Assembly: GCA_021810245.1 (NCBI GenBank)
Contig: JAJZJF010000002.1
Span: 1,594-65,593, forward strand
Origin: a bacterium
Lineage (GTDB): Bacteria > Elusimicrobiota > Elusimicrobia > UBA1565 > UBA9628
Length of the DNA: 64,000 nt
Direction of reading: 5' to 3'
How positions within the stretch are numbered: position 1 is the stretch's first letter; each line of letters opens with the position of its first letter. Both the position numbers and the translations under genes were made by a program. The notes under the pieces were generated by a model. The model did not search any database and was not told where the DNA came from. It worked only from the letters and a program-made list of their open reading frames with translations. Shown piece after piece: positions 8,777 through 29,150 of this stretch.

Positions 8777-10354
8777 ATGAACCCTCAAGTTAAAGCCCGC
8801 CGAAATATCTCTTCCGCGATTTTTTTGTTGGTTCTACTTCTCTCTTTCGCGTCCCAAGTCCGCGCCACTCCCAACGACGATTTAATCGAAGCCTCTATGC
8901 TGGGTCGCCTCAGCGCTCTTAAGCGCGCTCTCTCAAGAGGCGCCGACGTCAATTTAAGAGATGATATCGGGAGAACTCCTTTAATGTGGACCGCGATGAC
9001 CGGGCATCCCCGCATCGCCCGCTATCTCATAAAGGTCGGAGCGCGAGTCGACACCCACGATGACGGAAAATGGACCGCTCTGATGCAGGCGGCCGACTAT
9101 GGGCATGACAATGTCGTCCAGGTCCTTCTTCACGCCGGGGCCAACGTCAACGCGGAAAATAACGCCGGCTGGACCGCCTTGATGATCGCCTCCGAAGGCG
9201 GATATCCGGAAATGGCCCAGGATTTAATTGAGCACAAGGCCAATGTCAACGCGAAAAATAAGTCCGGGAAAACGGCGCTGATGATCGCCGCGCAAAACGA
9301 CAATATCGGGGTCATTAAGCCTTTAATGGACGCGGGCGCCGATATCAACGCTCGGGACAACAACGGCTGGACGGCTTTAATGTATGCCTGCCGCAGCGGA
9401 TACTCAGACGCAGTGCGTATTCTTCTTAAAGACGGCGCCGATCCCAACCTTGAAAACGCCCAAAGCGAAACGGCCGGCGATATCGCCAATGTCGCCGGAC
9501 ACGAAGACATCGTCTCCTTGATCAACTCCCAATCGGAAGAACCCCAGCCTGCCCCGCCGGCGCGAAAAATCTATTTTTCAGACGTTGACAATCCCCTTTA
9601 CCGTTTGCCGGAGCATCCCCATGACATCGCTTTGGTGATCGGAATTAACCGCTATATTCATGATTTGCCTCACGCGAAATTCGCCAATCGAGACGCCGAA
9701 GCGGTCAAGGCGCATTTAATCGCGCTTGGGTTTCCCGAATGGCAAATCAAAACTCTCATCAACGATCAAGCCACTAAAAGCGACATCTTGGGCTACATTG
9801 AGAGCTGGCTGCCCAAAAACGCAAAATCAGATGGACGGGTTTTTGTCTATTTTTCAGGCCACGGGGCGCCGGACGTAATATCCGGGCAAGCTTATCTCGT
9901 TCCGGTCGATGGGGATCCCAATTTCTTATCTCAAACCGCCATTCGCATTTCGGATTTATATAAAGATTTAAATTTGCTTAACGCCAAAAAAGTGATTGTC
10001 GTTTTAGACAGTTGCTTTTCAGGCAGCGGAGAGAGATCCGTCATCGCCGACAACGTCAAGCCTTTAGTCTCAAAAGTAGAATCCCTGACTCCTCCCGCGG
10101 GAAAACTTTTAGTCTTTGCCGCGGCAAAAGGCAATGAAACAGCCGGAGTCTTAGACAGCCAAGGCCACGGGCTTTTCACTTATTATTATCTTAGGGGAAT
10201 TGACCGCGCGGATCAAAAACATAGAAATTTAACGCCCAGGTCCTTGTTTGACTATCTCAAAATCCGTGTCCGGGGAAAGGCCGCCTCCCAGGGCCGGGAT
10301 CAGGTTCCAGTACTGGCCGGAAACACCTCGGGAACCCTGTTTACCTTCCGCTAA
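8777..10354 (+). CDS. Secreted ankyrin-repeat protein fused to a caspase-like (peptidase C14) domain
   Basis: Signal peptide ending SQVRA. At least five clear 33-residue ANK repeats (GWTALMIASEGGYPEMAQDLIEHKANVNAKNK and similar). The C-terminal domain carries the caspase His/Cys dyad contexts VYFSGHGA and VLDSCFSGSG. Confidence 0.85.
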   Translation: MNPQVKARRNISSAIFLLVLLLSFASQVRATPNDDLIEASMLGRLSALKRALSRGADVNLRDDIGRTPLMWTAMTGHPRIARYLIKVGARVDTHDDGKWTALMQAADYGHDNVVQVLLHAGANVNAENNAGWTALMIASEGGYPEMAQDLIEHKANVNAKNKSGKTALMIAAQNDNIGVIKPLMDAGADINARDNNGWTALMYACRSGYSDAVRILLKDGADPNLENAQSETAGDIANVAGHEDIVSLINSQSEEPQPAPPARKIYFSDVDNPLYRLPEHPHDIALVIGINRYIHDLPHAKFANRDAEAVKAHLIALGFPEWQIKTLINDQATKSDILGYIESWLPKNAKSDGRVFVYFSGHGAPDVISGQAYLVPVDGDPNFLSQTAIRISDLYKDLNLLNAKKVIVVLDSCFSGSGERSVIADNVKPLVSKVESLTPPAGKLLVFAAAKGNETAGVLDSQGHGLFTYYYLRGIDRADQKHRNLTPRSLFDYLKIRVRGKAASQGRDQVPVLAGNTSGTLFTFR

Positions 10355-10446: not shown

Positions 10447-12429
10447 TTAGCGCATCAAATAAGAAGTGAGATGAAAGCCGGTCCAGGACAGCGAATAGGC
10501 GACGACAAAAAAACTCGAGAATTGAATGAGCGGCCATTTCCAGCCGCCGGTTTCCCGCTGAACGACAATCAAGGTTGACAAACACTGAAGTGCAATCGCA
10601 AAGAAAATAAGGAGACTGACCGCCGTCGCCAAGCTGTAAGCCGGAAGCCCTTGGGCGTTGCGCGCGTTTCTAAGGCTGTCAATGAGGCCTCTTGACGGTT
10701 CGGTCTCTCCACTGACTGAAAAAAGAGTTCCCAAGGTGCCGACAAAAACCTCCCGCGCGCTCAAAGAAGCGATGACCGCGACGCTAATGCGCCAATCATA
10801 GCCAATGGGCTTAAATATCGGCTCAATTAATTTTCCCATCCGGCTTAAAACGCTCGACTGTAAATCAAGAGCCTGTTGCTGAAACTCAAGATCGGCTAAT
10901 TTGGCCTTTGAACTCTCGGATAAAACCCCAGCCCGCATTTTCGCGATTTCAGCCTTGATGGGAAGGCTTTGGGGATTTTTAGGAAAAGAGGCCAAGGCCC
11001 AAATCACCAGGCTAATGGTGAAAATCACTCTTCCCGCCTTGACTAAAAAATGAGAGGAGCGCACCCAGACGTAAACCCCCAATTCCCGCAAATGCGGAAA
11101 GCGGTACGGAGGCAAAACGGTCACCGGAACGGTAAAGTGGTCTTCGGCCTGTCCCAGCTTTAAAACCAAGGCGAAAAGAAGAGCCGCGACAACGCCAAAG
11201 GCGTACATTCCCGCCATTACCAGAGCCTGGGCGCTAAAGCCAAAAAAACGGAGCGAAGCCGGCACAAAGGCGGCGATGATGAGAGTATAGACCGGAATCC
11301 GGGCCGAGCAGGTCATCAGCGGGCAAAGAAAAATCGCGGCCAAGCGCTTTTTCTCATCCGCAATTGTTCGCGCCGCCATTACGCCGGGAATCGCGCAGGC
11401 AAATGAGGATAAGAAAGGAACAAAGACCTTGCCGTCCAAGCCGAAGGGCCGAAAGGCGCGGTCCAGCATCGCCCCCGCGCGGGGGAGGTATCCGCTCTGC
11501 TCTAAAAAGCCGATCAAAGCAAACAAAATCGCGATCTGAGGAATAAAGGTCGCCACCGCTGAAATTCCGGACAAGATTCCGTCGCAGACAAGACTGGAAA
11601 GAAAGCTGCCGGGAATCCAGGCGCGCAGCCACTGCGTTCCAAAGCCAAACAGGGAAGACAAAGCGTCCGACAGCGGACGCCCCAGGGAAAAGAGAGATTC
11701 AAAGACCAAAAACAATGTAGCCGCCAAAATCAAGGGACCTATGACCGGGTGAAAAAGCCGCCGATCGATCTGAATTGAACGCTCGACAGTCGAGAGAATC
11801 TCGCCTTCCGGCAGAGAAACGGCTTGGGACAAGGCCGCCTCCACGCGCGCGCGCGCGCTGTTTTCTTCCTCATCAATTGAGGAAAAACCATTTTTAATTT
11901 TCAAACTCAAATTTGATTTCTCGGGCAAAGAGGCGATAAAAGAGCGAATTTCCGCGATGCCGTCTCCATAGCGCGCCGCCGCCGGAAAGACGGGAAGCCC
12001 CAATTCCTCGGAGAGCTTCTCAACATTGATCTCAATGCCATTATGGCGGGCCTCATCCATCATGTTGATGACGACTCCAACCGAGTAGCCACGCATTTTT
12101 AAGGCCTCGGCCAAGGTAAGATCCTTGGCTAAATTCGAGGCTTCCGTTACGCAGAGAATAAAAAAATGGCCCCTAATATCCGGGTCAAGAGAAGATTCTT
12201 CTAAAAATTGAAAGGCAATCTTCTCATCTTGGGAAATGGGGCGCAGGGAATAGGTTCCGGGTAGATCGACAATTTCAATAGACTCATCGCCATCGCTTAA
12301 ATTGCCGACGGCGCGCTCAACGGTGCAGCCCGCGAAATTGGCGACCCGCTGACTGAGCCCGGTCAGAGAATTAAAAAGGGTGGTTTTGCCGGTGTTGGGA
12401 CGCCCGGCGATAGCGACGACAGTTTTCAC
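10447..12429 (-). CDS. feoB: Ferrous iron transporter FeoB
   Basis: N-terminal G-domain AGRPNTGKTTLFN, followed by a polytopic membrane domain. Preceded by feoA with a 4-nt overlap. Confidence 0.95.
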   Translation of the reverse strand: MKTVVAIAGRPNTGKTTLFNSLTGLSQRVANFAGCTVERAVGNLSDGDESIEIVDLPGTYSLRPISQDEKIAFQFLEESSLDPDIRGHFFILCVTEASNLAKDLTLAEALKMRGYSVGVVINMMDEARHNGIEINVEKLSEELGLPVFPAAARYGDGIAEIRSFIASLPEKSNLSLKIKNGFSSIDEEENSARARVEAALSQAVSLPEGEILSTVERSIQIDRRLFHPVIGPLILAATLFLVFESLFSLGRPLSDALSSLFGFGTQWLRAWIPGSFLSSLVCDGILSGISAVATFIPQIAILFALIGFLEQSGYLPRAGAMLDRAFRPFGLDGKVFVPFLSSFACAIPGVMAARTIADEKKRLAAIFLCPLMTCSARIPVYTLIIAAFVPASLRFFGFSAQALVMAGMYAFGVVAALLFALVLKLGQAEDHFTVPVTVLPPYRFPHLRELGVYVWVRSSHFLVKAGRVIFTISLVIWALASFPKNPQSLPIKAEIAKMRAGVLSESSKAKLADLEFQQQALDLQSSVLSRMGKLIEPIFKPIGYDWRISVAVIASLSAREVFVGTLGTLFSVSGETEPSRGLIDSLRNARNAQGLPAYSLATAVSLLIFFAIALQCLSTLIVVQRETGGWKWPLIQFSSFFVVAYSLSWTGFHLTSYLMR

Positions 12430-12792: not shown

Positions 12793-12869
12793 TGCGGGGT
12801 AGAGCAGCCTGGTAGCTCGCAAGGCTCATAACCTTGAGGTCGCTGGTTCAAATCCAGCCCCCGCAACCA
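12793..12869 (+). tRNA. tRNA-Met (anticodon CAT), initiator-like
   Basis: Hand-folded cloverleaf: TGCGGGG-TA-GAGC-AGCCTGGTA-GCTC-G-CAAGG-CTCATAA-CCTTG-AGGTC-GCTGG-TTCAAAT-CCAGC-CCCCGCA-A-CCA (77 nt). It has A11:T24, and its D and T loops match E. coli tRNA-fMet as I recall it. The 1:72 pair is weak (T1:A72). Only two of the three initiator G:C pairs are present in the anticodon stem. Confidence 0.85.
12822..12867. repeat. attL: 46-bp direct repeat (3' half of tRNA-Met)
   Basis: AGGCTCATAACCTTGAGGTCGCTGGTTCAAATCCAGCCCCCGCAAC is identical, base by base, to 29105-29150. Confidence 0.9.
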
Positions 12870-12977: not shown

Positions 12978-13946
12978 ATGGCAAAAACCGCGATCAGCCG
13001 AGCCGCCGTCGGCAATGAAGTCACCTTAGCCCATGCCTCGGAGTCCTTTCAGCTCCGTTGCCAGGCACGGAACCTTTCGCCGCTCACCTGCGATTGGTAC
13101 AAGCGTCGGCTAAAAAGATTCTGGCGTTTCCTTGAAGCGCAAGGCGTCACGCTTGGGCGCGAGATCACGCCGCATCTGATCCGTCTCTACTTGGACAAGA
13201 TGCGCGCGGAAAATCTGAGTTCCGGCCTCATCGCGCGGGACTACGGCGCATTCAAGTGCTTCTTTCGCTTCCTGACGCAAGAGCGGCTCATCCCGCAAAA
13301 TCCCATCCAGCTCGTGGAGAAGCCGCGCATGGAGCAGAAGCTCGTCCGGCCGCTCTCGATGGAGCAAGTGCGGCTGTTGCTTGCCAAGGCCAATCAAAAG
13401 CGGTTTTTTGGCCAGCGGGTCTGGACAATGGCGGTCCTCATCCTCGATACCGGCCTTCGCCGCGCCGAGGTCATTGGGCTCAAGAAAGACGACATAGACT
13501 TCAACAAGGGCGTCCTGCGCGTCATGGGCAAGGGCGGCAAGGAGCGCGAGGTCCCCTTCGGCGCGACCTCAAAGCAGGCGCTCTGGAACTACCTCATGCG
13601 CCGCGGCGAATTGCCCGGCCAGGAGCTACTCTTCGTGAATCAATTTGGCGATAAGATTTGCCCGCGCTGGATGAACAAGGCCATCAGGATGCTGGGCGAG
13701 CGGGCGGGGATCAAGGGCCTGCGCGTCTCGCCCCATGCGCTGCGCCACACCTTCGCGACGCAGTATATCTTGAACGGCGGCGACGCCTTCAGCCTCCAGC
13801 AAATCCTCGGGCATTCGACGCTTGAAATGGTGAAGGTCTATGTCGGTCTGGCCAACCGAGACGTGGCGCTGCTCCACCGGCGCTTCAGCCCGATGGACCG
13901 GATGGGCTTGGTGCCGGGCGCCAAGCGGCGAGTGCTGGTGAGGTAA
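12978..13946 (+). CDS. Tyrosine recombinase/integrase (XerC/D-like), island integrase 1
   Basis: N-terminal SAM-like core-binding domain. Catalytic region has TGLRRAE, HALRHTFAT, LGHSTLEMVKVY (R..H-x-x-R..H..Y). RBS GGAGG before the ATG. Confidence 0.9.
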   Translation: MAKTAISRAAVGNEVTLAHASESFQLRCQARNLSPLTCDWYKRRLKRFWRFLEAQGVTLGREITPHLIRLYLDKMRAENLSSGLIARDYGAFKCFFRFLTQERLIPQNPIQLVEKPRMEQKLVRPLSMEQVRLLLAKANQKRFFGQRVWTMAVLILDTGLRRAEVIGLKKDDIDFNKGVLRVMGKGGKEREVPFGATSKQALWNYLMRRGELPGQELLFVNQFGDKICPRWMNKAIRMLGERAGIKGLRVSPHALRHTFATQYILNGGDAFSLQQILGHSTLEMVKVYVGLANRDVALLHRRFSPMDRMGLVPGAKRRVLVR

Positions 13947-14212
13947 AATGAACAACCCCCTTGACGACATGGAATATACGCGGTAAAACAATGGCGTAAC
14001 CATGGAGCCATCCAATGATGAGTGAAACATGTCGACTCTTTTCTACCATTACAAAGTTGGATAAAAGACAGCGCCCGCGCAAGTCTCCACAATCCTTTCT
14101 ATGAATTAGATTGGGCGTCCCACAAACCCGAAAAGATTAAGCCGCTTTAGCCTTCCTTTGACGTTCCCCATATTCTTAGGCCAATATTTTTGTTTGATAG
14201 TAAAACATTCTA

Positions 14213-14241
14213 TTGACAGATAATCGAACATCTGTTACAAT
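14213..14241 (+). promoter_or_regulatory. Sigma70 promoter with embedded palindromic operator for the HTH-Panacea/toxin operon
   Basis: TTGACA (14213-14218), 17-nt spacer, TACAAT (14236-14241). The spacer contains the inverted repeat ACAGAT (14216-14221) / ATCTGT (14230-14235). Confidence 0.6.
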
Positions 14242-14264
14242 AAAATAAACAAAAAGGAGAAAGA

Positions 14265-15047
14265 ATGAACATTGGGGAAAGGATTCGTAAAATGCGCGAG
14301 AGTTTAAGCCTTAGTCAGCAGGACTTGGCCTTGAAAATCGGCTTGCCGCGACCGGCGCTTTCACAAATTGAGAGCGGAGGGCGTAAAGTCTCGGCTGATG
14401 AACTCCTCCTTTTCTCAAAAGCCCTCAACATGACGATCGACCAACTCATGGGCCTCTCGCCAGTTCCCAGCGTTTCCATCGCCTCTCCCAGCCGAGAAAA
14501 CCGAGCCACCCCGCATCCCCAGGAAATGCGGATTAGCGTTCCGCAAAAGAAAATGCAGAAATTCCGCCAGGTGATCCTCTATTTGCTCGACAAAGTCGGC
14601 GCCAAACCCAATATCGGGGAAACCGTTCTCTATAAGCTTTTATATTTTATTGATTTCAACTATTACGAGAAATACGAAGAGCAATTGATCGGCGCGACTT
14701 ACATTAAAAACCACTATGGCCCGACTCCCGTGGAGTTCAAAAAGTTAATAGATCAAATGGTCAAGGACAAAGAAATCGAGCAGGTCAAAAGCCGCTATTT
14801 TAATTTTCCGCAGACCAAATACCTGCCGCGTTTGTCTCCGGATTTATCCCTCTTTTCAGCGCGCGAAAAAGAGGAAATTGACCGCGTAATCGAACGCCTT
14901 TCCGACATGAACGCGGCGCAGATCAGCGCTTATTCGCACAAAGACGTCCCCTGGATAACGACCGAAAAGGGCCAGCCCATCGATTACGAATCGGTTTTTT
15001 ACCGGACGCCGGATTATTCCATGAGGCCCGCCATTGAAGACATTTAA
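14265..15047 (+). CDS. XRE-HTH fused to Panacea (DUF4065/SocA-like) antitoxin domain
   Basis: N-terminal HTH IRKMRESLSLSQQDLALKIGLPRPALSQIESGGRKVS. C-terminal LYKLLYFIDFNYYEKYEEQLIGATYIKNHYGPTPVEF matches the Panacea signature (KL.YF.D......G..l....y.....GP). RBS AAGGAG. Confidence 0.8.
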   Translation: MNIGERIRKMRESLSLSQQDLALKIGLPRPALSQIESGGRKVSADELLLFSKALNMTIDQLMGLSPVPSVSIASPSRENRATPHPQEMRISVPQKKMQKFRQVILYLLDKVGAKPNIGETVLYKLLYFIDFNYYEKYEEQLIGATYIKNHYGPTPVEFKKLIDQMVKDKEIEQVKSRYFNFPQTKYLPRLSPDLSLFSAREKEEIDRVIERLSDMNAAQISAYSHKDVPWITTEKGQPIDYESVFYRTPDYSMRPAIEDI

Positions 15048-15414
15048 TGAGATTATTCAATGTCCCGAGTTTAAGAAAGACATCAAAAAGCTCTCAAAGC
15101 GCTTTCGCTCGCTTCCTGAAGACCTCGCAACCTTCATCCGCTTCCAGCTTAATTCCTATCACAACCTGGGAATCGATAACGGCGGAATTTTTCGGATTCC
15201 CGGCCTGCCCTTCATAATCCCCAGCGTATACAAAGCCAAAAAATTCGCCTGCAAGGCCCTCAAGGGACGCGGCGCGCAATCGGGAATTCGGATTATTTAC
15301 GCTCATTTCGAAAGTGAAAATCGCATTGATCTAATCGAAATCTATTTCAAAGGCGACAAAGAAAACGAAAACAAGGAACGGATAGCGCGGATGTATCCTC
15401 AGAGAAGTAGCTGA
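15034..15414 (+). CDS. RelE/ParE-superfamily toxin (partner of the Panacea antitoxin)
   Basis: Overlaps the antitoxin by 14 nt. SGIRIIYAHFESENRIDLIEIYFKGDKEN matches the RelE/ParE core strands (yRiiY...i.li.i..K). There is no in-frame ATG near the 5' end, so TTG 15034 with GAGG upstream is the likely start. Confidence 0.65.
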   Translation: MKTFNEIIQCPEFKKDIKKLSKRFRSLPEDLATFIRFQLNSYHNLGIDNGGIFRIPGLPFIIPSVYKAKKFACKALKGRGAQSGIRIIYAHFESENRIDLIEIYFKGDKENENKERIARMYPQRSS

Positions 15415-15553
15415 AATGTCTTAGAAAGTTTGTCCATGGGGATGCGGCCGAGCAATTCGCGGAGAGCCCCCCGAAAGAATATCGCGAGCACAGTGGAAAC
15501 CATCCTTAACTCTCGATGCAAAACTGCCAACAGGGAAAGGTCTTCCTGCGGCC

Positions 15554-16117
15554 TTAAACTGCTTGAGTCATAGGCCGGTCAGCATAACGCTCAAGAAGAA
15601 GATCATGTTCAATAGCGTTCTTTATTTTTGCGTAAAAACCCTTAAGACGTGGATAGTCCAATAAAAATAACGCTCCAGCGAGGGGAACCGTCAGCATGAT
15701 CACTAGCAATAAAAGAGGAGAACGAAGCGTTAAAGAGAGACTCAATATTTCCGCCGCTTTGCGCCACTCAGCTTCCAGCTTTGTTCTCAGTTTTTTATCG
15801 TCAATCCGACTCAGGATTTCAGCAATCTGATTGCGCCGTGGTTTAAGCAGAAATAACGCCGCCATAATCTTGGGAAACGTCAACGTATGACAATAACGAA
15901 TAAGGCCATTGAACACCTCGCGAATATCGCGATATTCAGCGGAATTGAAATCAAGCTCCCCATCAGCCGCCATCAAAAATATTGTATTGCGAATCTTAAA
16001 AAGCTCGTGTCGGGCAATATCTATAATCAACCGCTGCCATAACCGATAGACAAACCACGCGAGAAGACCAATTCCAATTAAAAATTCTATGCGCCCAAAG
16101 AAAATTTCTCGTGTCAT
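15554..16117 (-). CDS. Hypothetical membrane protein (TM helix at each end, helical cytoplasmic middle)
   Basis: 187 aa. TM1 IEFLIGIGLLAWFVYRLW, TM2 LLLLVIMLTVPLAGALFLL. ATGA overlap with the upstream 129-aa gene. No family recognised. Confidence 0.6.
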   Translation of the reverse strand: MTREIFFGRIEFLIGIGLLAWFVYRLWQRLIIDIARHELFKIRNTIFLMAADGELDFNSAEYRDIREVFNGLIRYCHTLTFPKIMAALFLLKPRRNQIAEILSRIDDKKLRTKLEAEWRKAAEILSLSLTLRSPLLLLVIMLTVPLAGALFLLDYPRLKGFYAKIKNAIEHDLLLERYADRPMTQAV

Positions 16118-16503
16118 AGATTGGCATCCTCCGGATTTGTTTCTCCCTTATGCGTCAACATGCTGCTTGTTCTATTCGGATCCAGCCTTTTTTCCAATTC
16201 TACAATGTGATTCTGCATGCTTGCCACTTTTTTAAGCCGCAACTGACGTTCAAGAGTAGCCCATACGAAAAAAATAATCACTAAAATCCACGGCAACCAA
16301 TGGGAACGACTCTCTCGTGTAAAATATTGAAAAAAGAAATCCGCAATTGTCGTTTTCCCCGCCAACTCTTTGATGGAAAAATACCCATATCGGCAAACAA
16401 CCCATATTGCCGCTAGCGTTACAATTTTGGATAGGAAATCAAAAATCTTTACGACAATGAGAAATCGGAACCCCATCTCCGCATCCCGCGATTCCACTGC
16501 CAT
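16114..16503 (-). CDS. Hypothetical 2-TM protein with C-terminal coiled-coil
   Basis: 129 aa. TM helices FLIVVKIFDFLSKIVTLAAIWVV and WLPWILVIIFFVWATL, then the heptad-like ERQLRLKKVASMQNHIVELEKRL. No family recognised. Confidence 0.6.
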   Translation of the reverse strand: MAVESRDAEMGFRFLIVVKIFDFLSKIVTLAAIWVVCRYGYFSIKELAGKTTIADFFFQYFTRESRSHWLPWILVIIFFVWATLERQLRLKKVASMQNHIVELEKRLDPNRTSSMLTHKGETNPEDANL

Positions 16504-16509
16504 CGTCTG

Positions 16510-16539
16510 ATACTACAATACAATGAGAACCTCATGCAA
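16510..16539 (-). promoter_or_regulatory. Candidate promoter giving a leaderless transcript for the two membrane-protein genes
   Basis: Minus strand: TTGCAT (complement of 16534-16539), 18-nt spacer, TAGTAT (complement of 16510-16515), then 6 nt and the ATG at 16503. There is no Shine-Dalgarno sequence. Confidence 0.45.
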
Positions 16540-16639
16540 AAAAATAATCGGTGAGCGCCTTCATGTTCCAGCTAAGCTCCCTCGAGCATTCGAAATGTTT
16601 ACGTAATTTCCCTGTTGACTTGCACATAGAGTATAAGCT

Positions 16640-17005
16640 ACCCTGTCGTTACGCTCCAAGCGGAGCGGCTCTTTGACAACGGGTTTAAAACTTCTTCAAC
16701 TCTAGTCGTTAAGACTAGCCTCTAGGTGCGCCGAGGGCATCGTCCCTCAAACGTATCCTCCGGAGCAGAATCTGGCTCCTAAATCACTGCCTTATCGCTC
16801 AATGTCTCGCAACATTGAAACCAAGTTCGGTGGTTTTAGTCCAGATTTAATTCGGATAACTGAGAATTAAACTATTGAGTCATCAGTTTAATTTCCTGGG
16901 ATGGATAGCAAGACTTAAACTTAGTTAAAAAGTCTTGTTTTACGGAGTCGGTGTCGCGGGTAACCGCGTCGCTCCGTGATAAAAGTGGTTCAAAGAATAA
17001 CCAAG
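16640..17005 (+). ncRNA. Hairpin-rich non-coding leader; candidate retron msr-msd ncRNA (boundaries unknown)
   Basis: No credible ORF lies in 16504-17019. Hairpins read by eye: GCTCC/GGAGC 16653-16666; CTAGTC/GACTAG 16702-16718; GAGGG/CCCTC 16733-16748; palindrome CTCCGGAG 16757-16764; CAATGT/ACATTG 16800-16817; AATTAAACT/AGTTTAATT 16865-16893; CAAGACTT/AAGTCTTG 16909-16937; ACGGAG/CTCCGT 16942-16977 enclosing CGCGG-GTAA-CCGCG. I could not find a long a1/a2 inverted repeat by eye. Confidence 0.3.
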
Positions 17006-17019
17006 GAGGTGATAAGAAA

Positions 17020-17310
17020 ATGAAAAATAAGTTGAAGAAGGAAGTGTCGTTGCCCGTTGGAGAGGCTGAACAAATGGTACGCCTGCTAAAACAGGTTGCC
17101 GAAAATCGGCCGCTCACACCTCGCATCAGACGCAAGCTGTCAGAAGCCGCAGCGGGAATACAGACCCGCGTAAGTCTACTGAAAGACGGCCAGGTCAAGG
17201 TATCCGAGAAGTTGCTGGTAGTCGCACTTCGCGGTATCTCGCTTCTGGTTCACTTCCAGAAAGAAATCAGGGAAGTGGCAAGCGTTCTAATGGGCATGAA
17301 GGACAAATAA
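17020..17310 (+). CDS. Small helical protein of unknown function, first cistron of the RT operon
   Basis: 96 aa from ATG 17020, with strong RBS AAGGAGGTG at 17003-17011. The track's longer GTG 16951 start would read through the structured leader. No family recognised. Confidence 0.6.
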   Translation: MKNKLKKEVSLPVGEAEQMVRLLKQVAENRPLTPRIRRKLSEAAAGIQTRVSLLKDGQVKVSEKLLVVALRGISLLVHFQKEIREVASVLMGMKDK

Positions 17311-17328
17311 AACACCGACTCACATTTT

Positions 17329-17616
17329 ATGATTAAATTCGGAAGGACGATCAAGACGTATCGGAAAAAAATGAGGCTAACGCAGGTGGCGTTAGCTCAA
17401 CGGGTTAATATTGAACCAACATATTTGTCAGCAATTGAGAATGGCAGGCGCGAGCCGAGCTTGACGCTTGTAAAACAAATCAGCAAGGCTGTGGCAATCC
17501 CAGCCGAAATCTTTTTCTGGGATGCCATTGAGCCAAAAGGCTCCATGTCACTTCAAGATCGGCGCGCCATAAATCTTGCAAAAAGCATCCTCCAGAATCA
17601 CTTCAAAGCGCTCTAG
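17329..17616 (+). CDS. XRE-family HTH protein
   Basis: IKTYRKKMRLTQVALAQRVNIEPTYLSAIENGRREPSLTLVKQISKAV is a classic Cro/C1-type HTH. The stop lies 9 nt before the RT start. Confidence 0.8.
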   Translation: MIKFGRTIKTYRKKMRLTQVALAQRVNIEPTYLSAIENGRREPSLTLVKQISKAVAIPAEIFFWDAIEPKGSMSLQDRRAINLAKSILQNHFKAL

Positions 17617-17625
17617 AACTCTGCA

Positions 17626-18546
17626 GTGAACTTAGCACGTTTAGACTTGGCAAATATGGAGCAACTGGGTGAGGTTGCTTCTGTCTCCAGCTCCCAACTA
17701 CTCTGCATTATTCGTAACAAAGAGTCATACTACGAAAGTTTTTTTATGAAGAAGAAGGACGGTGCACCGCGAGAAATCAATCCGCCCAAACCCGAACTCG
17801 CAGAAATCCAACTACGCTTAAAAAACTATCTCCAAAAGCGACTCAAATGGACCAACGCGGTCCATGGTGGCATTCCAAAACGCAGCATAATCACAAATGC
17901 GGAAAGGCATATGGGTAAACTCTGGGTCGCGAACCTGGATATCTCAAAATTCTTCCCCAGCACGAAGCCCGCCCAGATTGAATCAGCGCTCCAAAGGGCG
18001 GGGTGCTCAACCCCAGTGGCCAATCTTTTCGCCGAACTAACAACTTTTAGGAATGGGCTACCTCAAGGCTCTCCCACAAGCACAATCCTGAGCAACCTCG
18101 TGCTCGAACCGATGGATTCACAATTTCTGCGTTTATGTCATCGCAACTCCCTTACCTATACCCGCTATATTGACGACATCACGATATCAGGCGATATCAA
18201 CCTAAACCCATTCTATTCTGCGTTCATTAAAATAATCCAATCGTCTGGATTTGAGGTGCAGACAAAAAAAGTCCACATAACTCCTCACTCCCAGCGTCAA
18301 GTTGTTACCGGCCTAGTCGTCAATGACAGATTGAGACCAACGGGCGAGTTCCTAAGTAATCTAAAGCGAGCAATTCGTCGATGCTGGAATGGTCCAGAAG
18401 AAATTGCTATTGCGGCGGCAGAGGAAGGCCATGAGCCCAGAGAGTTCATTCGCTCACTTTGTGGAAAGGTAAATCACGTCAAGTCCGTTGACCCCAAACT
18501 TGGCCGTAAAATTCGCGCTCTGTGCACTAAAATCCCGCACTTGTAA
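17626..18546 (+). CDS. Retron-type reverse transcriptase
   Basis: 306 aa, the typical retron RT size. Motifs: PPKPELAEIQLRLKNYL; GGIPKRSIITNAERH (retron NAxxH motif); LDISKFFPS; LPQGSPTSTILSNL; YTRYIDDITISGD (YIDD at 18166-18177); RQVVTGLVVN (retron VTG motif); LCGKVNHVKSV thumb. No extra fused domain. GTG start. Confidence 0.85.
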   Translation: MNLARLDLANMEQLGEVASVSSSQLLCIIRNKESYYESFFMKKKDGAPREINPPKPELAEIQLRLKNYLQKRLKWTNAVHGGIPKRSIITNAERHMGKLWVANLDISKFFPSTKPAQIESALQRAGCSTPVANLFAELTTFRNGLPQGSPTSTILSNLVLEPMDSQFLRLCHRNSLTYTRYIDDITISGDINLNPFYSAFIKIIQSSGFEVQTKKVHITPHSQRQVVTGLVVNDRLRPTGEFLSNLKRAIRRCWNGPEEIAIAAAEEGHEPREFIRSLCGKVNHVKSVDPKLGRKIRALCTKIPHL

Positions 18547-18591
18547 TTTAAATAGGCAGAAGATTTTATAGACCATCGGCTTGCTCGGATA

Positions 18592-19770
18592 TCATGTAGC
18601 GACCGTTTTCTTAGGATAGCGTCCAACAATACGAACGGCTGTTTTCAATACATAGGCAGGCTTCTTGCCATCCAGAATTTTTGGGTTGGATACTTCGTAA
18701 TAGGCGCCACCCCAATAATGCCCTAAAGAGCAGGTCAATATTTCATCTTTAGGAAGCCTAAATACCACTTTATGAGCTTCCGTTTCGTCTACACCCGTCC
18801 CTCTACCACCCAAGGGGAGGTCCACTGTGATAAGATGAACCCCTGTTGGGTCGGAAATGAATAGTGCCTCGTCATTTGTTGGGGCAATCTGATATTCAAA
18901 ATAATCGCTCGCAGGAATTAGTCCTGATGCGGCATGCGTCGTTTTGATTTTAATGGCCATGTTAATAATAGATTCAAGCGCCCAGTGAAGAGATTCTTGG
19001 CTCCAGTTGCCTTCGTGGCTGTAATCGCCGTCCAATTCAATTTTTAGAGGAGATTCCTGTTTCCTATTCCAATGCACGACAGGGAGAATCAGGCTTAATC
19101 TTTGGAATTCATGAATGTCTAGGCCAAATTGCAACATTTTTATTTCCTGCTCGTATGAAGGAGTGGCGGAGTAGTAGCCCAAACCAACTAATCCACTGGG
19201 GTGATCAAATTCATGATCAAATAACACATATTTAACTTTTGCAAGTATCTCGACGCATTCCTGCCAAGATTCAGGCGTTCCTTTCTCCAGTTCCCGCTCA
19301 GCGCTCTTAACCATGTTCCTGATTTCTTCATCGGAAATCATGTCGGACAAGCTCAATTTTTCAAAATCCCTTTCCAGAAAAGTCGAACTTGCGTATTCAA
19401 GAAATGGTTTCACGGCTCCGATGGCTTGGGCGTGATCGGAAGGCCTTTGCAATATGCCGTAATGTTTAACGCTTACGCGCGCCCTGTTTAATTGGGATAG
19501 CTCGCGCTCATAGGGCAATTTTTTATTTTGTTCCAGTTCCTTGTTAATCGCGCCGAAGTAGCCCGAGAACGTCATTGGATCTTTCAGCTTCGCGTTGATG
19601 ACGCTGGCAATCGCTCCCAAGGCAAGTTCCACCGCATCTTGCAGGGACAAAAGTCCTTTTGAAAATTCAAATAGGTCGAGTTGATTCGCACAGGCAAGAC
19701 TCCCCTGTTGAAAGAGCCTCTTTGCCAAAACCATGCGCTCAATGACGGATTTATCAATCACCTTTGGCAT
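18592..19770 (-). CDS. Hypothetical 392-aa protein, fourth cistron of the type I R-M operon; possible HEPN/DUF4145-like N-terminal domain
   Basis: ATG 19770 is 3 nt downstream of the hsdS stop (19774-19776) on the same strand. The N-terminal helical region contains LSQLNRARVSVKHYG (R-x4-H). The C-terminal half is beta-rich and unrecognised. Confidence 0.6.
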   Translation of the reverse strand: MPKVIDKSVIERMVLAKRLFQQGSLACANQLDLFEFSKGLLSLQDAVELALGAIASVINAKLKDPMTFSGYFGAINKELEQNKKLPYERELSQLNRARVSVKHYGILQRPSDHAQAIGAVKPFLEYASSTFLERDFEKLSLSDMISDEEIRNMVKSAERELEKGTPESWQECVEILAKVKYVLFDHEFDHPSGLVGLGYYSATPSYEQEIKMLQFGLDIHEFQRLSLILPVVHWNRKQESPLKIELDGDYSHEGNWSQESLHWALESIINMAIKIKTTHAASGLIPASDYFEYQIAPTNDEALFISDPTGVHLITVDLPLGGRGTGVDETEAHKVVFRLPKDEILTCSLGHYWGGAYYEVSNPKILDGKKPAYVLKTAVRIVGRYPKKTVAT

Positions 19771-19773
19771 GGT

Positions 19774-20928
19774 TTAAATCTCCCCCTCAAACGCCCGGTG
19801 CAAAAGGGACTGAAACAACTCGTCCAATTTCTCGCGGCTCGCGGCTTGAGCGGCTTCCATGGCGCGAATTTCGGCGACGCGCGCGGCGAAGTCTTTTTGT
19901 AGCGCTATCGGTGGAAGTGGAAGCTCGATGGCCTGAAGTTCCTTGGCATTGATGTTTGCCTGCCCTACAGCGCCACGCGCCATTTCTGCAAGGCGTCGCT
20001 TCATCGAAGTCATATTCATAAAGGCAGTGAAGTGCAAAGGATGCTCAATGTTGGGTTGGAAACGAATACGAATAAAGTAGGAAGCGGCGACAGCCTTGAA
20101 TCTTCCATCCCACATCCCCGTTTTGCCGACTAACTCGCGGCTATTTGTTCTGTTAAAAAGAACATCACCTTGCTTTAACTGATGCTTTAAAATCTCGGTA
20201 TCCGTTAATTCAACCGTCTTCAAATCTTTTAAGTCTAGTTGTCCGTCCATTGTAACATTGCCCATTCGCAAAACAACGATGCCTCGATCAGCTTCATTCG
20301 CCTTCTGGCTTGTCCCATAATCACAGGATTCCATTAGAGAACCCACTCGACTTATGGGCCACCCTTTAGGATTTGTCACGGGATCCCCAAACATCTCATG
20401 AAAGAGCGCGGGGATGAGGTCGGCGGCGCGGCGGTCGGCTTGGGCGCGGAGTTTTCGCAATTCATCCGCCGCGTCCAGCAGCTTCACGATTCGCTCTTGC
20501 TCCGCCAGCGGCGGAACGGGAATCTCGGTTCTCTCAAATGGCTCTTTCGTAATGTGTTGCATCGTCGCTCCATGTGTCTTGGAGCGGAGCTCGCCCATCA
20601 CCAACTTGAGTGCATAAAAGAGGTATGTCCTCAAGACTTGAGAGGGATTAGGAACGGCGCGGAAAATGTGCTGGTTTAGAACAGCTTCCCCTCTTTCCCA
20701 AATAAATACGTCCAACGTGGCAGACCAAGAAATTAAAATGTCGCCGTTTTTTACGGCATGACGTTCGTCAATTTTACCTGCGAAGTAATTTGCGCGAGTG
20801 TTTGAGTTAGTAAGATTTTGAATTCGAATAATAGGAACACCGTCAGATGACCACTCATTTGGCTTGAAAGCTCGGCCATTTATGAAATCAGATACTTCGC
20901 CGAGCTTTTTCAGCGGCCAGCGGGTCAT
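19774..20928 (-). CDS. hsdS: Type I restriction-modification specificity subunit HsdS
   Basis: Two target-recognition halves separated by the conserved helical spacers LPPLAEQERIVKLLDAADELRKLRAQA and LPLPPIALQKDFAARVAEIRAMEAAQ. 4-nt overlap with hsdM. Confidence 0.9.
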   Translation of the reverse strand: MTRWPLKKLGEVSDFINGRAFKPNEWSSDGVPIIRIQNLTNSNTRANYFAGKIDERHAVKNGDILISWSATLDVFIWERGEAVLNQHIFRAVPNPSQVLRTYLFYALKLVMGELRSKTHGATMQHITKEPFERTEIPVPPLAEQERIVKLLDAADELRKLRAQADRRAADLIPALFHEMFGDPVTNPKGWPISRVGSLMESCDYGTSQKANEADRGIVVLRMGNVTMDGQLDLKDLKTVELTDTEILKHQLKQGDVLFNRTNSRELVGKTGMWDGRFKAVAASYFIRIRFQPNIEHPLHFTAFMNMTSMKRRLAEMARGAVGQANINAKELQAIELPLPPIALQKDFAARVAEIRAMEAAQAASREKLDELFQSLLHRAFEGEI

Positions 20929-22457
20929 TGGGGTTTGCCGATTTGATCGAGCAAGGCGTTGCCGCGACGGATGATTTCGGCTTCGAGATCGAGGACTTCG
21001 GCGAGAATTTTTTTCGGGGAGTCGTGGTTGACGGAGGAAACCGTCACGGGTTTATAGCGGCCTGCCGCGAGACTCCAGGAGTTTTCCCGGATTTTTTCGA
21101 TCGGAACGCGGTAGCTGTTGGGGCCTTCCTCTTTATTGGGCCATTTGGACAAGAGATCGGGAATATCGTTAGCCGCGATCGGCGTTCGTTTGTCATCAAG
21201 ACTGAGACCGTCAGCGGTCAAATCGTAAAACCAGACGCTTTTCGTCGGCTCGCCTTTTTGAAAGATCAGCGCGGCGGTGCCGACGCCGGAATAAGGCTTA
21301 AAAACGCCACTTGGCAAATTGATCACGGCCTGCAAATCGCATTCAGTCAAAAGCAGTTCGCGCAAGGAAGTCGCCGCGTTGCTAGAGCCAAAAAGAACGC
21401 CGTTGGGAACGATGACGCCCGCCCGGCCATTTTGCGCCAGATGATCGATGAACCATTTGAGAAACAGAAGTTCGGTTGAGCGCGTGTTGAGTTTATAATT
21501 AAGATCAGACAAAATGCTCTCGTCTTGAACTTTCCCGGCAAACGGCGGGTTGGCCAAAATCACGTCGAATTGCTTTCCGGGATACGCGCCGCTAAAACCC
21601 GTGGTCAGGGGATCCTTCATCTCGATTTGGGTTTTCTCCAATTGGTGTAGGTAGAGGTTTAAGATCGCGATTTTCACCATATTCGCGTCATTGTCAAAGC
21701 CGATGAAGGCTTGGTCTTCGAGAAATTTCCATTGAGCGGGCTTGATGAGCGCTCCGTCCGCCAAACCGCGTTTTAAGTCCGCAGGTTTTGTATTTTGGCG
21801 CAGGATGTGGTTAAAAGCCGCAATAAGAAAGCCCGCCGTGCCGCAGGCGGGGTCGCAGATGCGCTCGTTCGGCTGTGGATTAACTAAAGCGGTGATCAGG
21901 GCAATGATGTGACGCGGAGTTCGGAATTGCCCATTGGTTCCGGACGCGGACAGTTGGCTCAAGAGATACTCATACATATCTCCTTTAAGATCGTGCCCAT
22001 CATGGGCGGACAAGTCCATTTCATGAATGCCTTGGATCACGGCTCGCAGCGCAGGACGATTGTAAATTTTGAGCGTGGCGCGGCTAAAAAGCAACTTGCC
22101 TGTTTCAGAGAGACTGGGAAGCTCATGCAATCTTTCCATCGCGTCGCGAACGACGTTAAAGAGATTGTCGCCGGTCAAGGTGACGAAGTTCCCCCACGCA
22201 AAGCGCGCCCATTCCCCGGAGAAAATGCGCTTATATTTCTTGTCAAGATTTGCGAAGGCCTCGTCTTTTTCGGTGAGCAGGCGCAAAAAGAGCAGATAGG
22301 AAATCTGTTCGATTGAGTCCATCGGATTATTGACGCCACCGGCAAACAAGATGTTCATGAGTTGGTCTATCTTTTGCCGCAAACCGGAAGAAAAAAAGTT
22401 CGATTGCGGGACACCCGGCTGAGGCGTCACGGGAGCGGACTTTGTCTGCGTTTTCAT
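20925..22457 (-). CDS. hsdM: Type I R-M N6-adenine DNA methyltransferase HsdM
   Basis: HsdM_N-like N-terminus, SAM motif DPACGTAGFL and catalytic NPPF (ILANPPFAG). Confidence 0.95.
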   Translation of the reverse strand: MKTQTKSAPVTPQPGVPQSNFFSSGLRQKIDQLMNILFAGGVNNPMDSIEQISYLLFLRLLTEKDEAFANLDKKYKRIFSGEWARFAWGNFVTLTGDNLFNVVRDAMERLHELPSLSETGKLLFSRATLKIYNRPALRAVIQGIHEMDLSAHDGHDLKGDMYEYLLSQLSASGTNGQFRTPRHIIALITALVNPQPNERICDPACGTAGFLIAAFNHILRQNTKPADLKRGLADGALIKPAQWKFLEDQAFIGFDNDANMVKIAILNLYLHQLEKTQIEMKDPLTTGFSGAYPGKQFDVILANPPFAGKVQDESILSDLNYKLNTRSTELLFLKWFIDHLAQNGRAGVIVPNGVLFGSSNAATSLRELLLTECDLQAVINLPSGVFKPYSGVGTAALIFQKGEPTKSVWFYDLTADGLSLDDKRTPIAANDIPDLLSKWPNKEEGPNSYRVPIEKIRENSWSLAAGRYKPVTVSSVNHDSPKKILAEVLDLEAEIIRRGNALLDQIGKPQ

Positions 22458-24865
22458 TGATAATGGCTCGCGATCATGGATTGGCGAATCAACGGAGATT
22501 GCCTGAGAGCTTCAAAGACCTGCTCCCGATCTTCAAAACGGGCCAAGGCCGAAATGCCGCCGATTTGATTAAACTGACTCGCGTTAAAGATCGTCATGTC
22601 TTCCTCCATAAACCGTTTCAGGACTTCGGCGTCATTGGCCAGAAGCTGAGCCGTCGCGCTCAGCCATTTTTGCTGATCGTAACGCAAATTAAAGCGGGCG
22701 GCAATGGAATCCACGGTGTCACTGACAATTTCATCGCGCGTCGGCAACGGTCTTCGGCCAACGGCGTTATAGACAAAGGCCGAAGTCGTCGCTGGAACGC
22801 CGTAAGAGACAATGAGTTTATCGGGAGAATAAAACATCTCGGGGCGGTGATAGAACCTTTCGTTGACGATCGTCTCAACGCTGTCATCGTCTTCCGCTTC
22901 GACGGCGGCTTTGAGTTCCGGTGTTTTTTCGACAAATTCTTTCATGTCTTGTTCATAACCGCCGCGAAAGGTCATCACGTCCACTTTTTCGCCATTGGGG
23001 CCGACAATTTTTATTTCTTGGCTGACAAGAGTGTCGATACCTTCCCAAACCGGAATTTCAGGCTTCTCCGATAACGGCTCGGATGAATTGCCGGGGGCGT
23101 TATGAAACTCGCTGGGCTTGCCGCCGGGCGGGTGCGGCTTTGATATTGCCTGTTTATTTTCGCGCGGAACATTCAATGGTAACGAATAATCATATTCTTC
23201 CTCGAAGTATTCCGCGACGGCGCAAAAATCGAGCATAAAGAATTTTTTCTTTTCATATTCAGTATGACCTACTTTAAATGTAAATAGGCGCGTGCCACGC
23301 CCCTTGATCTGAATATATTCAGTCGGCGAGAAAATTGGCCGCATGAGGCCGATATTGAGCAAATCGCGGCAGTTGTAGCCAGTAGAAAGCATGTCCACCG
23401 ATACGGCAATGCGCTCCGAACGCTTGCCGTCGCGAAAATCCTTGGCCAAGACGGAAGCATCTTTGATTCGTGAGGTGATCGTCAACGCAACGCTCGGCTG
23501 AATTTCGTTAAAGATTTTAGTGAGACTGGTCGCATGGGTCTGATTGACGGCAAAAATAAGAGATTTGCCGATCTTCCCCTCAGGATCGCGCTGAGATTCT
23601 TTAAGAAAGGTTTCACACATAAGGCGATTGCGCGCGGGAGTGAAAATTTTGCGCTCCAAATCTTGAATCTTAAAGCTTTCTTCCTGCTCATCAACGAGAA
23701 CGGCCCAGCCGGAATCAGACAAGGCTTGAGTGGTGACCTCCGAGCGAATATCAAAAATCTTCGGCAGACAAAGAAAGGGGCCTTCAATATCCTTGACGGC
23801 GTCGAGGATATCGTAGCGAAAAGTCGGGGAACCCGGCTCGCAGCCGAAATAGCGATAGGTGTCGCGAAGCTCGCGGGCTTCCAGCGCCTTAGGATTATCC
23901 TCGGCCAATCGCTTGACGTTGACGTTTTTAAGATACGCCTTTGGCGTGGCGGTTAAACCAATGCGCGTGGCTTGAAAGAACTGGACGACTTCGCGCGCGT
24001 TGCCGTAAATCGAGCGGTGAGCCTCATCGTTGATGACCAAGTCAAAATAAAATGGAGTAAAGTCTTTGCGATAGCGGCGATCCGTCATCAGAGATTGAAT
24101 AGTGGCGACCACCACTGATGAGGCAAGAAGCTCGCCGCTGCGCCGAGCACTCTTAAAAACAACCGGCTTAAATTCCGGCAAAACGGCCTTAAAATCTTCC
24201 ATGGTTTGTTTTGCCAATTCAATACGGTCAACAATGAATAAAACTCGCTCGGCATTGCGGCTGGTGAGAAAACGGCGAATCAGCGCGGCGCAGAGAAGAG
24301 TTTTTCCGGTTCCGGTCGCCATTTCCAAAAGAAATTTTCTTTGTCCTTTCTCATCGAAAAGCCGCGCAATTTCATCTATCGCTTTAATCTGATAGCGCCT
24401 CAGCACAAAATCCTTCTTGAGCCCTTGGAGATAATCAGGCTTGATGATTTCACTTTGAAGAGGATTCGGCGGCTGGAGATTTTTGAGGCGAAGGCGCTCC
24501 ATATCCCGCCTTGAGGGCAGCCGCTCGATGCGATAAGCGTCGCGCTGATCGGCCCGCTCGTAGTTCCAAAACCAGTGCTCGCGGCCATTGGAAAGAATAA
24601 TGAAAGGAGCTTTTAGATTTTCCGCGTAACCGCGCGCCTGTTCTTTAGCGTCATAGGGATCCAAATCTTCACGTTTGGCTTCTAAAACACAAAGCGCGCG
24701 GCCTAGGCTATCTTTGAGAATGTAGTCGGCGCGGCCATTCTGGGTATGAAGCTCAAACTGGACTTGCTTGGAATCGAGCAAATCCCAATCGCTGTCTTGA
24801 AGAGCGCGATCGATAAGAATCCGCGAAAAGGCCTCCGGCTGGTTAGGCACGGGCAGTCTCAACAT
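22454..24865 (-). CDS. hsdR: Type I restriction enzyme R subunit HsdR
   Basis: N-terminal nuclease-like domain (ADYILKD...LEAKR), helicase motif I MATGTGKT and motif II VINDEAHRS. ATGA overlap with hsdM. Confidence 0.9.
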   Translation of the reverse strand: MLRLPVPNQPEAFSRILIDRALQDSDWDLLDSKQVQFELHTQNGRADYILKDSLGRALCVLEAKREDLDPYDAKEQARGYAENLKAPFIILSNGREHWFWNYERADQRDAYRIERLPSRRDMERLRLKNLQPPNPLQSEIIKPDYLQGLKKDFVLRRYQIKAIDEIARLFDEKGQRKFLLEMATGTGKTLLCAALIRRFLTSRNAERVLFIVDRIELAKQTMEDFKAVLPEFKPVVFKSARRSGELLASSVVVATIQSLMTDRRYRKDFTPFYFDLVINDEAHRSIYGNAREVVQFFQATRIGLTATPKAYLKNVNVKRLAEDNPKALEARELRDTYRYFGCEPGSPTFRYDILDAVKDIEGPFLCLPKIFDIRSEVTTQALSDSGWAVLVDEQEESFKIQDLERKIFTPARNRLMCETFLKESQRDPEGKIGKSLIFAVNQTHATSLTKIFNEIQPSVALTITSRIKDASVLAKDFRDGKRSERIAVSVDMLSTGYNCRDLLNIGLMRPIFSPTEYIQIKGRGTRLFTFKVGHTEYEKKKFFMLDFCAVAEYFEEEYDYSLPLNVPRENKQAISKPHPPGGKPSEFHNAPGNSSEPLSEKPEIPVWEGIDTLVSQEIKIVGPNGEKVDVMTFRGGYEQDMKEFVEKTPELKAAVEAEDDDSVETIVNERFYHRPEMFYSPDKLIVSYGVPATTSAFVYNAVGRRPLPTRDEIVSDTVDSIAARFNLRYDQQKWLSATAQLLANDAEVLKRFMEEDMTIFNASQFNQIGGISALARFEDREQVFEALRQSPLIRQSMIASHYQ

Positions 24866-29104: not shown

Positions 29105-29150
29105 AGGCTCATAACCTTGAGGTCGCTGGTTCAAATCCAGCCCCCGCAAC
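29105..29150. repeat. attR: orphan 46-bp copy of the tRNA-Met 3' half
   Basis: Identical to 12822-12867. There is no 5' half of a tRNA upstream. It is followed by G rather than the CA that completes the encoded CCA end at the left copy. Confidence 0.9.

Follow-up and report, generated by a model that had tools for sequence, protein, structure and literature searches.

The 64,000-nucleotide stretch of DNA analyzed here (the window) comes from contig JAJZJF010000002.1 of assembly GCA_021810245.1, a genome of the Elusimicrobiota, and covers positions 1,594 to 65,593 of its forward strand. It carries a short operon whose last gene encodes a reverse transcriptase (RT). This operon is probably a divergent copy, from an uncultured lineage, of a known anti-phage system, the Type VI retron, rather than a new architecture. 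The RT is of the retron type, has no fused effector and is partnered with an XRE helix-turn-helix (HTH) protein and a small protein (SP), and the leader in front of the three genes is a structured non-coding RNA (ncRNA). By analogy with Retron-Vpa2 and Retron-Sen3, the system would probably act by abortive infection.

The three genes lie close together on the plus strand. The SP gene (96 aa, ATG start) occupies 17020–17310 and is followed after 18 nt by the gene for a 95-aa XRE/Cro-C1-type HTH protein (17329–17616) and, after a further 9 nt, by the RT gene (306 aa, 17626–18546), which begins with GTG and has an alternative ATG at 17656. The coordinates, the tight spacing and the 9-nt gap between HTH and RT given in a preliminary description of this sequence agree with the list of open reading frames (ORFs), and the 516-bp gap that precedes the SP gene (16504–17019) was confirmed. 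In the alignment of related loci, only ca. 16613–17019 of this gap is conserved; the initial ca. 110 bp are not. The order ncRNA, SP, HTH, RT is the Type VI layout, which identifies the 96-aa gene as the SP rather than an additional component. The preliminary description had counted it as an extra gene in a new architecture. The gene sits where the known SP toxin is encoded, and the SP-HTH-RT organization behind an ncRNA had already been catalogued (Mestre et al. 2020, cited in 10.64898/2026.04.27.721009) and has since been characterized in two preprints, on Retron-Vpa2 (2025, 10.1101/2025.10.22.683967) and Retron-Sen3 (2026, 10.64898/2026.04.27.721009).

The HTH protein matches Pfam HTH_3 (E 1.5e-13). 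Its best match in PADLOC is HTH_VI (E 6.7e-21, profile positions 2–86 of 92), with the next family ten orders of magnitude behind (E 3.3e-11). The HTH is identical in the other metagenome copies of the locus; polymorphism among these copies was ruled out, as the apparent differences are explained by gene calling.

A search with the RT profile retrieved 167 loci, and in 47 of them a homologous HTH gene lies shortly before the RT gene. Wherever the upstream sequence of an HTH-RT locus reaches far enough, which is so in ca. 40 cases, the place of the SP gene is taken by a small ORF of 68–98 aa that ends 19–75 nt before the HTH gene. All loci recovered through homology to the SP itself have the SP-HTH-RT arrangement with the same spacing, and the RT is strictly co-inherited with the leader RNA. 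Among genomes, the closest relatives of the RT come from metagenome-assembled genomes of Planctomycetota.

The SP is a real coding gene, as conservation is lowest at its third codon positions (0.67, compared with 0.81 and 0.86 for the other two) and the position and length of the ORF are kept in all family loci. The family is rare. A word-seeded search of 5.8 billion proteins found 6 homologues, and a full profile hidden Markov model (HMM) search found 12 cluster representatives among 1.84 billion. HMM and jackhmmer searches connect the family with small ORFs at 16 loci that are more distant, meaning that the SP diverges together with the RT – a co-divergence that has been reported for Type VI retrons. 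The SP has no match in Pfam, PADLOC or NCBIfam, in line with the earlier impression of a helical protein of no recognized family. An AlphaFold (AF2) model built from 7 sequences is mostly helical, with two short strands and three helices, the final one long, at a predicted local distance difference test (pLDDT) score of 71; compared with the PDB, it gave no match with E < 0.4. By analogy with Vpa2 and Sen3, we infer that the SP is a candidate toxic effector.

Conservation among the related loci begins abruptly at a -35 hexamer, and upstream of it is at background (0.48). This hexamer belongs to a sigma-70-like promoter on the plus strand (16615–16644), with -35 TTGACT at 16615–16620, an 18-nt spacer and -10 TACCCT at 16639–16644. 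The promoter was revealed by the comparative alignment. A consensus scan did not find it, because the -10 of the window matches the consensus at only three of six positions; the relatives have a TAnnnT -10 at a spacing of 17–18 nt, with better hexamers (TAGAAT, TATGAT, TATTAT). Transcription would start near 16651. Between the -35 and the -10 is a palindrome, CTTGCAC-N5-GTATAAG (16619–16637), whose half-sites co-vary in the relatives: CTTGTAC/GTACAAG, ATACAC/GTGTAT and CTTATAC/GTATAAG (alignment columns 167–185). Among the 11 distinct family loci aligned over leader, SP gene and spacer, columns 168/184 read UA in nine and AU in two, and columns 170/182 read GC in five, AU in four and GU in two. 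The palindrome is upstream of the putative start site and is for this reason read as a DNA element, a candidate operator that an HTH dimer would bind. Such an operator in the promoter suggests that the HTH also autoregulates transcription.

The single conserved promoter suggests that one transcript spans the ncRNA and the SP, HTH and RT genes. Its first ca. 670 nt (16651–17321, plus strand) form a hybrid RNA in which fold and covariation place the ncRNA and the SP coding sequence in one structure, before the transcript runs on into the HTH and RT genes. The region 16560–17330 folds at -259 kcal/mol, while shuffled sequences fold at -213 ± 6 kcal/mol (z = -7.35). The 64 base pairs in the named helices were scored in the 11 loci: 95% of the cells are paired, compared with 37–46% when the partners are slid, and 21 of the 64 pairs have changed on both sides, with none of 500 shuffles reaching the observed values. 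The structured leader proposed at the outset is confirmed by its fold and its covarying helices. Conservation is highest in the SP-HTH spacer (0.90), followed by the non-coding 5' domain (0.84) and the SP coding sequence (0.77), and is lowest in a variable domain (0.62).

The transcript would begin with a stem-loop, SL1 (CGCUCC-AAGC-GGAGCG, 16652–16667), in which five of six pairs are compensated and all cells are paired; a hairpin is found at the same position in more distant loci as well. Directly after it is a near-invariant motif, GCUCUUUGACAACGGG(U), at 16668–16684, a candidate 5' repeat arm and region of RT recognition or priming. This motif recurs as GCTCTTTGAnAAC 320–500 nt upstream of the SP gene in eight more distant loci (L009, L013, L014, L018, L022, L089, L090 and L092). 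Part of it (16670–16676) can form 7 bp with UCAAAGA at 16990–16996, and all cells of this helix are paired. Both arms are invariant, so covariation neither supports nor refutes the helix, and the two motifs co-occur in distant loci. We regard it as the best candidate for a basal stem resembling the a1/a2 of other retrons. An alternative partner for the 5' motif is the 3' end of the SP gene (17288–17295).

The 5' domain also covers the start of the SP gene. The arm CCUCUAGGU (16719–16727) pairs with the SP ribosome-binding region ACCAAGGAGG (17000–17008), which contains the Shine-Dalgarno sequence AGGAGG (17003–17008). This anti-Shine-Dalgarno helix has nine pairs, 96% of its cells are paired, and three pairs show compensatory double changes (e.g., UA in seven loci and CG in four); its two strands are further candidate repeat arms. 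Two more helices, 16678–16684/17052–17058 and 16690–16696/17039–17045, join the 5' domain to codons 7–13 of the SP gene, with four pairs compensated.

Three further parts of the leader lie between the two strands of the anti-Shine-Dalgarno helix. The hairpin SL2 (GAGGGCA-UCG-UCCCUC, 16733–16748) is 97% paired and almost invariant, giving no covariation evidence either way. The variable domain (16753–16907) consists of a long hairpin (ca. 16759–16856) followed by an A+U-rich hairpin. Its length differs between loci, with a 93-nt insertion in two of them (L005 and L006), and in each of the 11 homologues it folds into a long hairpin and then a second one. By analogy with the variable SL3 of Sen3 and the msd stem of Vpa2, the long hairpin is a candidate msd template stem. 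The third part is a pair of conserved hairpins. In the first, CAAGACUU...AAGUCUUG (16909–16937), six of eight pairs are compensated and 91% of cells are paired. The second (16940–16979) has two tiers, with an outer stem paired in 100% and an inner stem in 96% of cells, both with compensatory changes. It corresponds to the hairpin with a GTAA loop previously noted at 16942–16977, of which both stems proved to be conserved and the loop did not: the loops of the relatives are 4–6 nt long and of other sequences, and the GNRA tetraloop was rejected as a feature.

The SP gene as a whole is clamped by a long-range inverted repeat. Its upstream arm, IR1 (16945–16953), sits in the 5' internal loop of the two-tier hairpin, directly upstream of the SP ribosome-binding site, and its downstream arm, IR2 (CACCGACUC, 17313–17321, plus strand), is in the 18-nt spacer between the SP and HTH genes. 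In the window, 16945–16954 and 17312–17321 are complementary at 10 of 10 positions. The pairing of IR1 with the spacer encloses the entire SP gene in RNA structure. All 9 bp are intact in 11 of 11 loci, and five positions have compensatory double changes, the repeat occurring in four sequence versions (GAGUCGGUG, GGACAGGUG, GGACUGGUG and GAGUCCGUG). More distant SP-HTH-RT loci also have repeats of 8–12 bp at these two sites, but of unrelated sequence (AGGGTCGGT/ACCGACCCT and CCTAGACCACTT/AAGTGGTCTAGG, for instance). The preliminary description had found no long a1/a2 inverted repeat in the leader; long-range repeats do exist, and that absence is explained by their spanning the SP gene.

The spacer that holds IR2 (17311–17328) has no recognizable Shine-Dalgarno sequence for the HTH gene, and the invariant IR2 arm occupies the site where one would be expected. 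HTH translation may therefore be governed by the state of the IR1-IR2 helix, or it may be coupled to translation of the SP.

In layout and RNA structure, these features have close counterparts in the two characterized systems. Retron-Vpa2 of Vibrio parahaemolyticus (Zhang et al. 2025, 10.1101/2025.10.22.683967) produces a hybrid RNA of ca. 470 nt that joins the msr-msd to the coding sequence of a toxic SP. Stems enclose both the ribosome-binding site and the start codon of the SP, and the RNA folds back at its 3' end to pair with the first arm. Its HTH represses reverse transcription, and its multicopy single-stranded DNA (msDNA) rises on infection and is required for SP translation. The window shares with Vpa2 the order structured RNA, SP, HTH, RT; an RT without a fused effector; a putative single transcript for template region and SP; an SP start region held in helices; and a 3' end that pairs back. 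It differs in the length of the RNA (ca. 670 nt compared with ca. 470 nt) and of the SP (96 aa compared with 55 aa), and a search of the window leader for the conserved 7-nt direct repeats that have been proposed for Vpa2 was negative. The palindromic operator evident in the window is not mentioned for Vpa2 in the available portions of that preprint. The published 153-nt Vpa2 ncRNA itself was not found in plasmid, phage or viral-contig collections.

In Retron-Sen3 (Garcia-Rodriguez et al. 2026, 10.64898/2026.04.27.721009), which is also organized as SP-HTH-RT, the SP is a toxin and the HTH its antitoxin, and the HTH-SP module works independently of the RT and ncRNA. The RNA has a conserved stem-loop before its 5' repeat, a long variable internal stem, and an IR1-IR2 pair around the SP gene. 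The window resembles this lineage (Sen3/cl2075) in gene order, in the long variable internal stem, in an SP ribosome-binding site placed in a basal stem, and in having IR1 upstream of the SP and IR2 directly past its stop codon. The distance from start site to SP gene is longer (ca. 370 nt compared with ca. 280 nt), as is the SP (96 aa compared with 79 aa). While the IR1-IR2 of the Sen3 lineage is without statistically significant covariation, five of nine pairs are compensated in the window family. The Sen3 lineage is found in Beta- and Gammaproteobacteria, whereas that of the window is uncultured, with its nearest genome relatives in Planctomycetota.

The canonical retrons such as Ec86/Eco1 likewise have an RT of the retron clade that carries NAxxH and VTG, and near it a structured ncRNA in which a variable long stem is the likely template. 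In the window, however, the ncRNA is two genes away from the RT and the effector gene is inside the RNA; the terminal a1/a2 of the canonical retrons is missing, as are an assignable branching G and an Rfam match. The msDNA of the canonical retrons is an antitoxin, whereas that of the characterized Type VI systems switches the toxin on.

The mechanism that we favor is drawn by analogy from Vpa2 and Sen3. The one promoter (ca. 16615–16644) would drive a long hybrid RNA with the structured ncRNA at its 5' end and the SP coding sequence at its 3' end, and with the HTH and RT genes following. The 5' domain pairs with the SP Shine-Dalgarno region and the first SP codons, and would thereby hold back a protein that may act as a toxin. 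The HTH would repress the promoter through the palindromic operator and restrain the RT, neutralize the SP, or both. The RT would copy the long variable hairpin of the leader into single-stranded DNA (ssDNA). On infection – for example, by a phage that inhibits RecBCD or expresses recombination proteins – ssDNA would accumulate and remodel the RNA, the SP would be translated, and the infected cell would stop growing.

The strongest competitor to this scheme concerns the control of the same Type VI retron rather than its identity, and we hold it to be possible but distinctly less probable. The SP would be made constitutively and neutralized, protein to protein, by the HTH antitoxin; ssDNA would be constitutive too, and infection, sensed as RecBCD inhibition, would free the SP post-translationally. 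In that case the RNA structures would be there for RT templating and stoichiometry and would not gate translation. Retron-Sen3 works in this way, its HTH-SP module being independent of RT and ncRNA. In the window, the SP gene adjoins that of the HTH across an invariant 18-nt spacer with no obvious HTH Shine-Dalgarno, which fits coupled synthesis of a toxin and its antitoxin. Against this, the helix over the SP Shine-Dalgarno is compensated and the first SP codons are paired, both of which are predicted by translational repression. The compensated helix favors a translational component in SP control. It discriminates only weakly between the two schemes, since the Sen3 lineage also sequesters its ribosome-binding site.

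It is improbable that the leader is a mere cis-regulatory 5' untranslated region, a riboregulator or attenuator of an SP/HTH toxin-antitoxin operon, with the RT acting on some other substrate or in a role other than templating. Such a leader would account for the lack of an assignable a1/a2 with branching G and of a match to any Rfam retron msr, and a census found no detectable msDNA from six Type VI retrons. It would not account for a hypervariable long hairpin placed between conserved domains, as retron msd stems are, or for the strict co-inheritance of the RT with this RNA. RT-dependent ssDNA from the leader region was eventually shown in both Vpa2 and Sen3 (10.1101/2025.10.22.683967; 10.64898/2026.04.27.721009).

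The genes flanking the retron differ between loci. They include a RES-domain pair, a 619-aa protein of no assigned function with HsdM, HTH_17 with DnaB_C, an integrase, and a methyltransferase. This variation shows that the divergent membrane-protein pair upstream of the operon in the window, included in the system by the preliminary description, is not part of it. The pair, taken for membrane proteins in the preliminary description, consists of two overlapping ORFs of 129 and 187 aa on the minus strand (15554–16503) with no family match, and its only other occurrences are in copies of the contig that carries the window. Other retron types do include two-transmembrane effectors, and the pair is both adjacent and divergent. 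That it is the effector, with the 96-aa protein as an additional new component, is nonetheless highly improbable: none of the related loci has the pair, their upstream neighbors being unrelated genes; its sole PADLOC match is insignificant (E 0.0019); and sequence upstream of the -35 is conserved at background level.

The RT matches Pfam RVT_1 (E 2e-17) and consists of the RT domain only. It contains NAERH, RYIDD and QVVTGLVVN, and an alignment of 34 related sequences shows no variation at A92, H95, D183, D184, Q225, T228, L230 and N233. NAxxH and VTG are hallmark motifs of retron RTs, and the early reading of this protein as a retron RT without a fused effector holds. PADLOC retron RT models score 143–227 bits, RT_VI reaching 216 bits over profile positions 6–277 of 279, and NCBIfam retron models score 174–197 bits. 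None of the curated NCBIfam cut-offs for retrons is reached, which places it outside the St85, Ec67 and TIR subfamilies of retron RTs. In a tblastn search of plasmids, the RT found solely distant retron RTs of other types, at 27–36% identity. An origin in the group II intron, diversity-generating retroelement (DGR), Abi or DRT lineages, for which only the generic RVT_1 match speaks, has next to no probability given the far lower scores of group II intron RT/maturase (46 bits) and Drt2, Drt3a and Drt4 (22–44 bits) models, the invariance of NAxxH and VTG in the family, and the absence from the RT of a maturase or endonuclease domain and from the locus of DGR template/variable repeats.

Typing within the retrons is less clear. 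In a neighbor-joining tree of 153 RTs, the window RT falls in a clade of 57 members; of the 49 RTs in the tree that have an upstream HTH, 48 belong to this clade. Nine members have no HTH match, and contig ends account for five of these. The window's own family of 10 RTs has 100% bootstrap. RT_VI is the top PADLOC model for some members of the clade (L013, L075, L132 and L135), while for others (L008, L088, L090 and L034) the top model is XI, III-A or XIII, with RT_VI 4–38 bits lower. Membership of the RT in the Type VI clade (RT-clade 3 of Mestre) is likely, with HMM scores and tree both ambiguous.

Several observations weigh against the assignment to Type VI. The best PADLOC models for the RT are III-A (227 bits), XI (224) and XII (223), with RT_VI at 216, and the typing of its close relatives is likewise ambiguous. 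The bootstrap of the HTH-associated clade is just 16–19%. Neither a branching G nor a canonical a1/a2 could be assigned in the leader: aligning homologous loci, a step outlined in the preliminary description, gave strong covariation in the 11 loci and no branching G. The scan for retron ncRNA models that it had also outlined gave no Rfam match in the region, and a permissive scan of 14000–20000 gave nothing but a chance match to Yfr1 (E 5.1). Conserved direct repeats of at least 6 nt, as in Vpa2, were searched for in the leader and not found, and for the SP no similarity to a named family was detected. For the three types whose models score equal to or slightly above RT_VI, differences beyond the RT domain also have to be weighed. 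The RTs of types XI and XII carry a fused protease or TIR domain, while that of the window, at 306 aa, has none; type III-A has its effector in a separate partner gene; no neighbor within 14265–19770 matches a PADLOC effector model for a III-A, XI or XII effector or partner; and the HTH of the window matches the Type VI partner model.

The retron is carried on a genomic island of ca. 16 kb, integrated at a tRNA-Met gene (12793–12869) together with other defense genes. A 46-bp perfect direct repeat (12822–12867 and 29105–29150) duplicates the 3' part of the tRNA gene and marks the attachment (att) sites of the island. Two tyrosine integrases are encoded within it (12978–13946 and 26392–27450). 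Upstream of the retron, at 14265–15414, a gene for a 260-aa antitoxin with HTH and SocA/Panacea domains overlaps a 126-aa ORF without a family match; the two are probably a Panacea-type toxin-antitoxin pair inside the island. Downstream, on the minus strand, is a type I restriction-modification operon (18592–24865) with hsdR (22454–24865), hsdM (20925–22457) and hsdS (19774–20928). Four nt after hsdS is an ORF of 392 aa (18592–19770, minus strand), convergent with the RT gene and without a match in Pfam, PADLOC or NCBIfam. Type I restriction-modification genes also adjoin the retron in two of the related loci (L004 and L174). Just outside the island, near feoB (10447–12429), 8777–10354 encodes a 525-aa protein with ankyrin repeats and a caspase-like Peptidase_C14 domain.

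In a sister subclade of the window's, SP, HTH and RT are followed by a fourth gene, which encodes an RNase_T/DEDD 3'-5' exonuclease of 191–194 aa (L008, 2172–2744; L170, 2452–3027; L172, 2665–3246; L174, 1973–2557; L021, 506–1078). It overlaps the RT stop codon by ca. 17 nt in L170–L174 and is absent from the subclade of the window. The available portions of the two Type VI preprints make no mention of an exonuclease as a fourth gene.

A more ambitious reading joins these observations, and we put it forward as a speculation that is more apt to fail than to hold. The locus would be a Type VI riboregulator in unusually legible form, and the sister subclade an undescribed, exonuclease-bearing Type VI subtype. 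Reverse transcription would start beside the SP ribosome-binding site and copy the hairpin that carries IR1. Making or removing that segment of RNA would break both the anti-Shine-Dalgarno helix and the IR1-IR2 clamp, so that a single step would switch the SP on and alter translation of the HTH. If this is true, the DEDD (RNase T-like) exonuclease would build turnover of ssDNA into the system.

Type VI is the least understood retron type, and its two characterized examples disagree on how the toxin is released. The window adds a distant lineage, probably associated with Planctomycetota, that has a rare SP family. It is no new kind of system, and its value is comparative: it offers covariation for the SP clamp and for the anti-Shine-Dalgarno helix, a candidate operator, and an exonuclease-bearing subclade. 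For the pairing that clamps the SP gene, which is without statistical support in the Sen3 study, this lineage supplies clear compensatory changes. Sequestration of the SP ribosome-binding site likewise gains comparative support, as the helix that covers it covaries.

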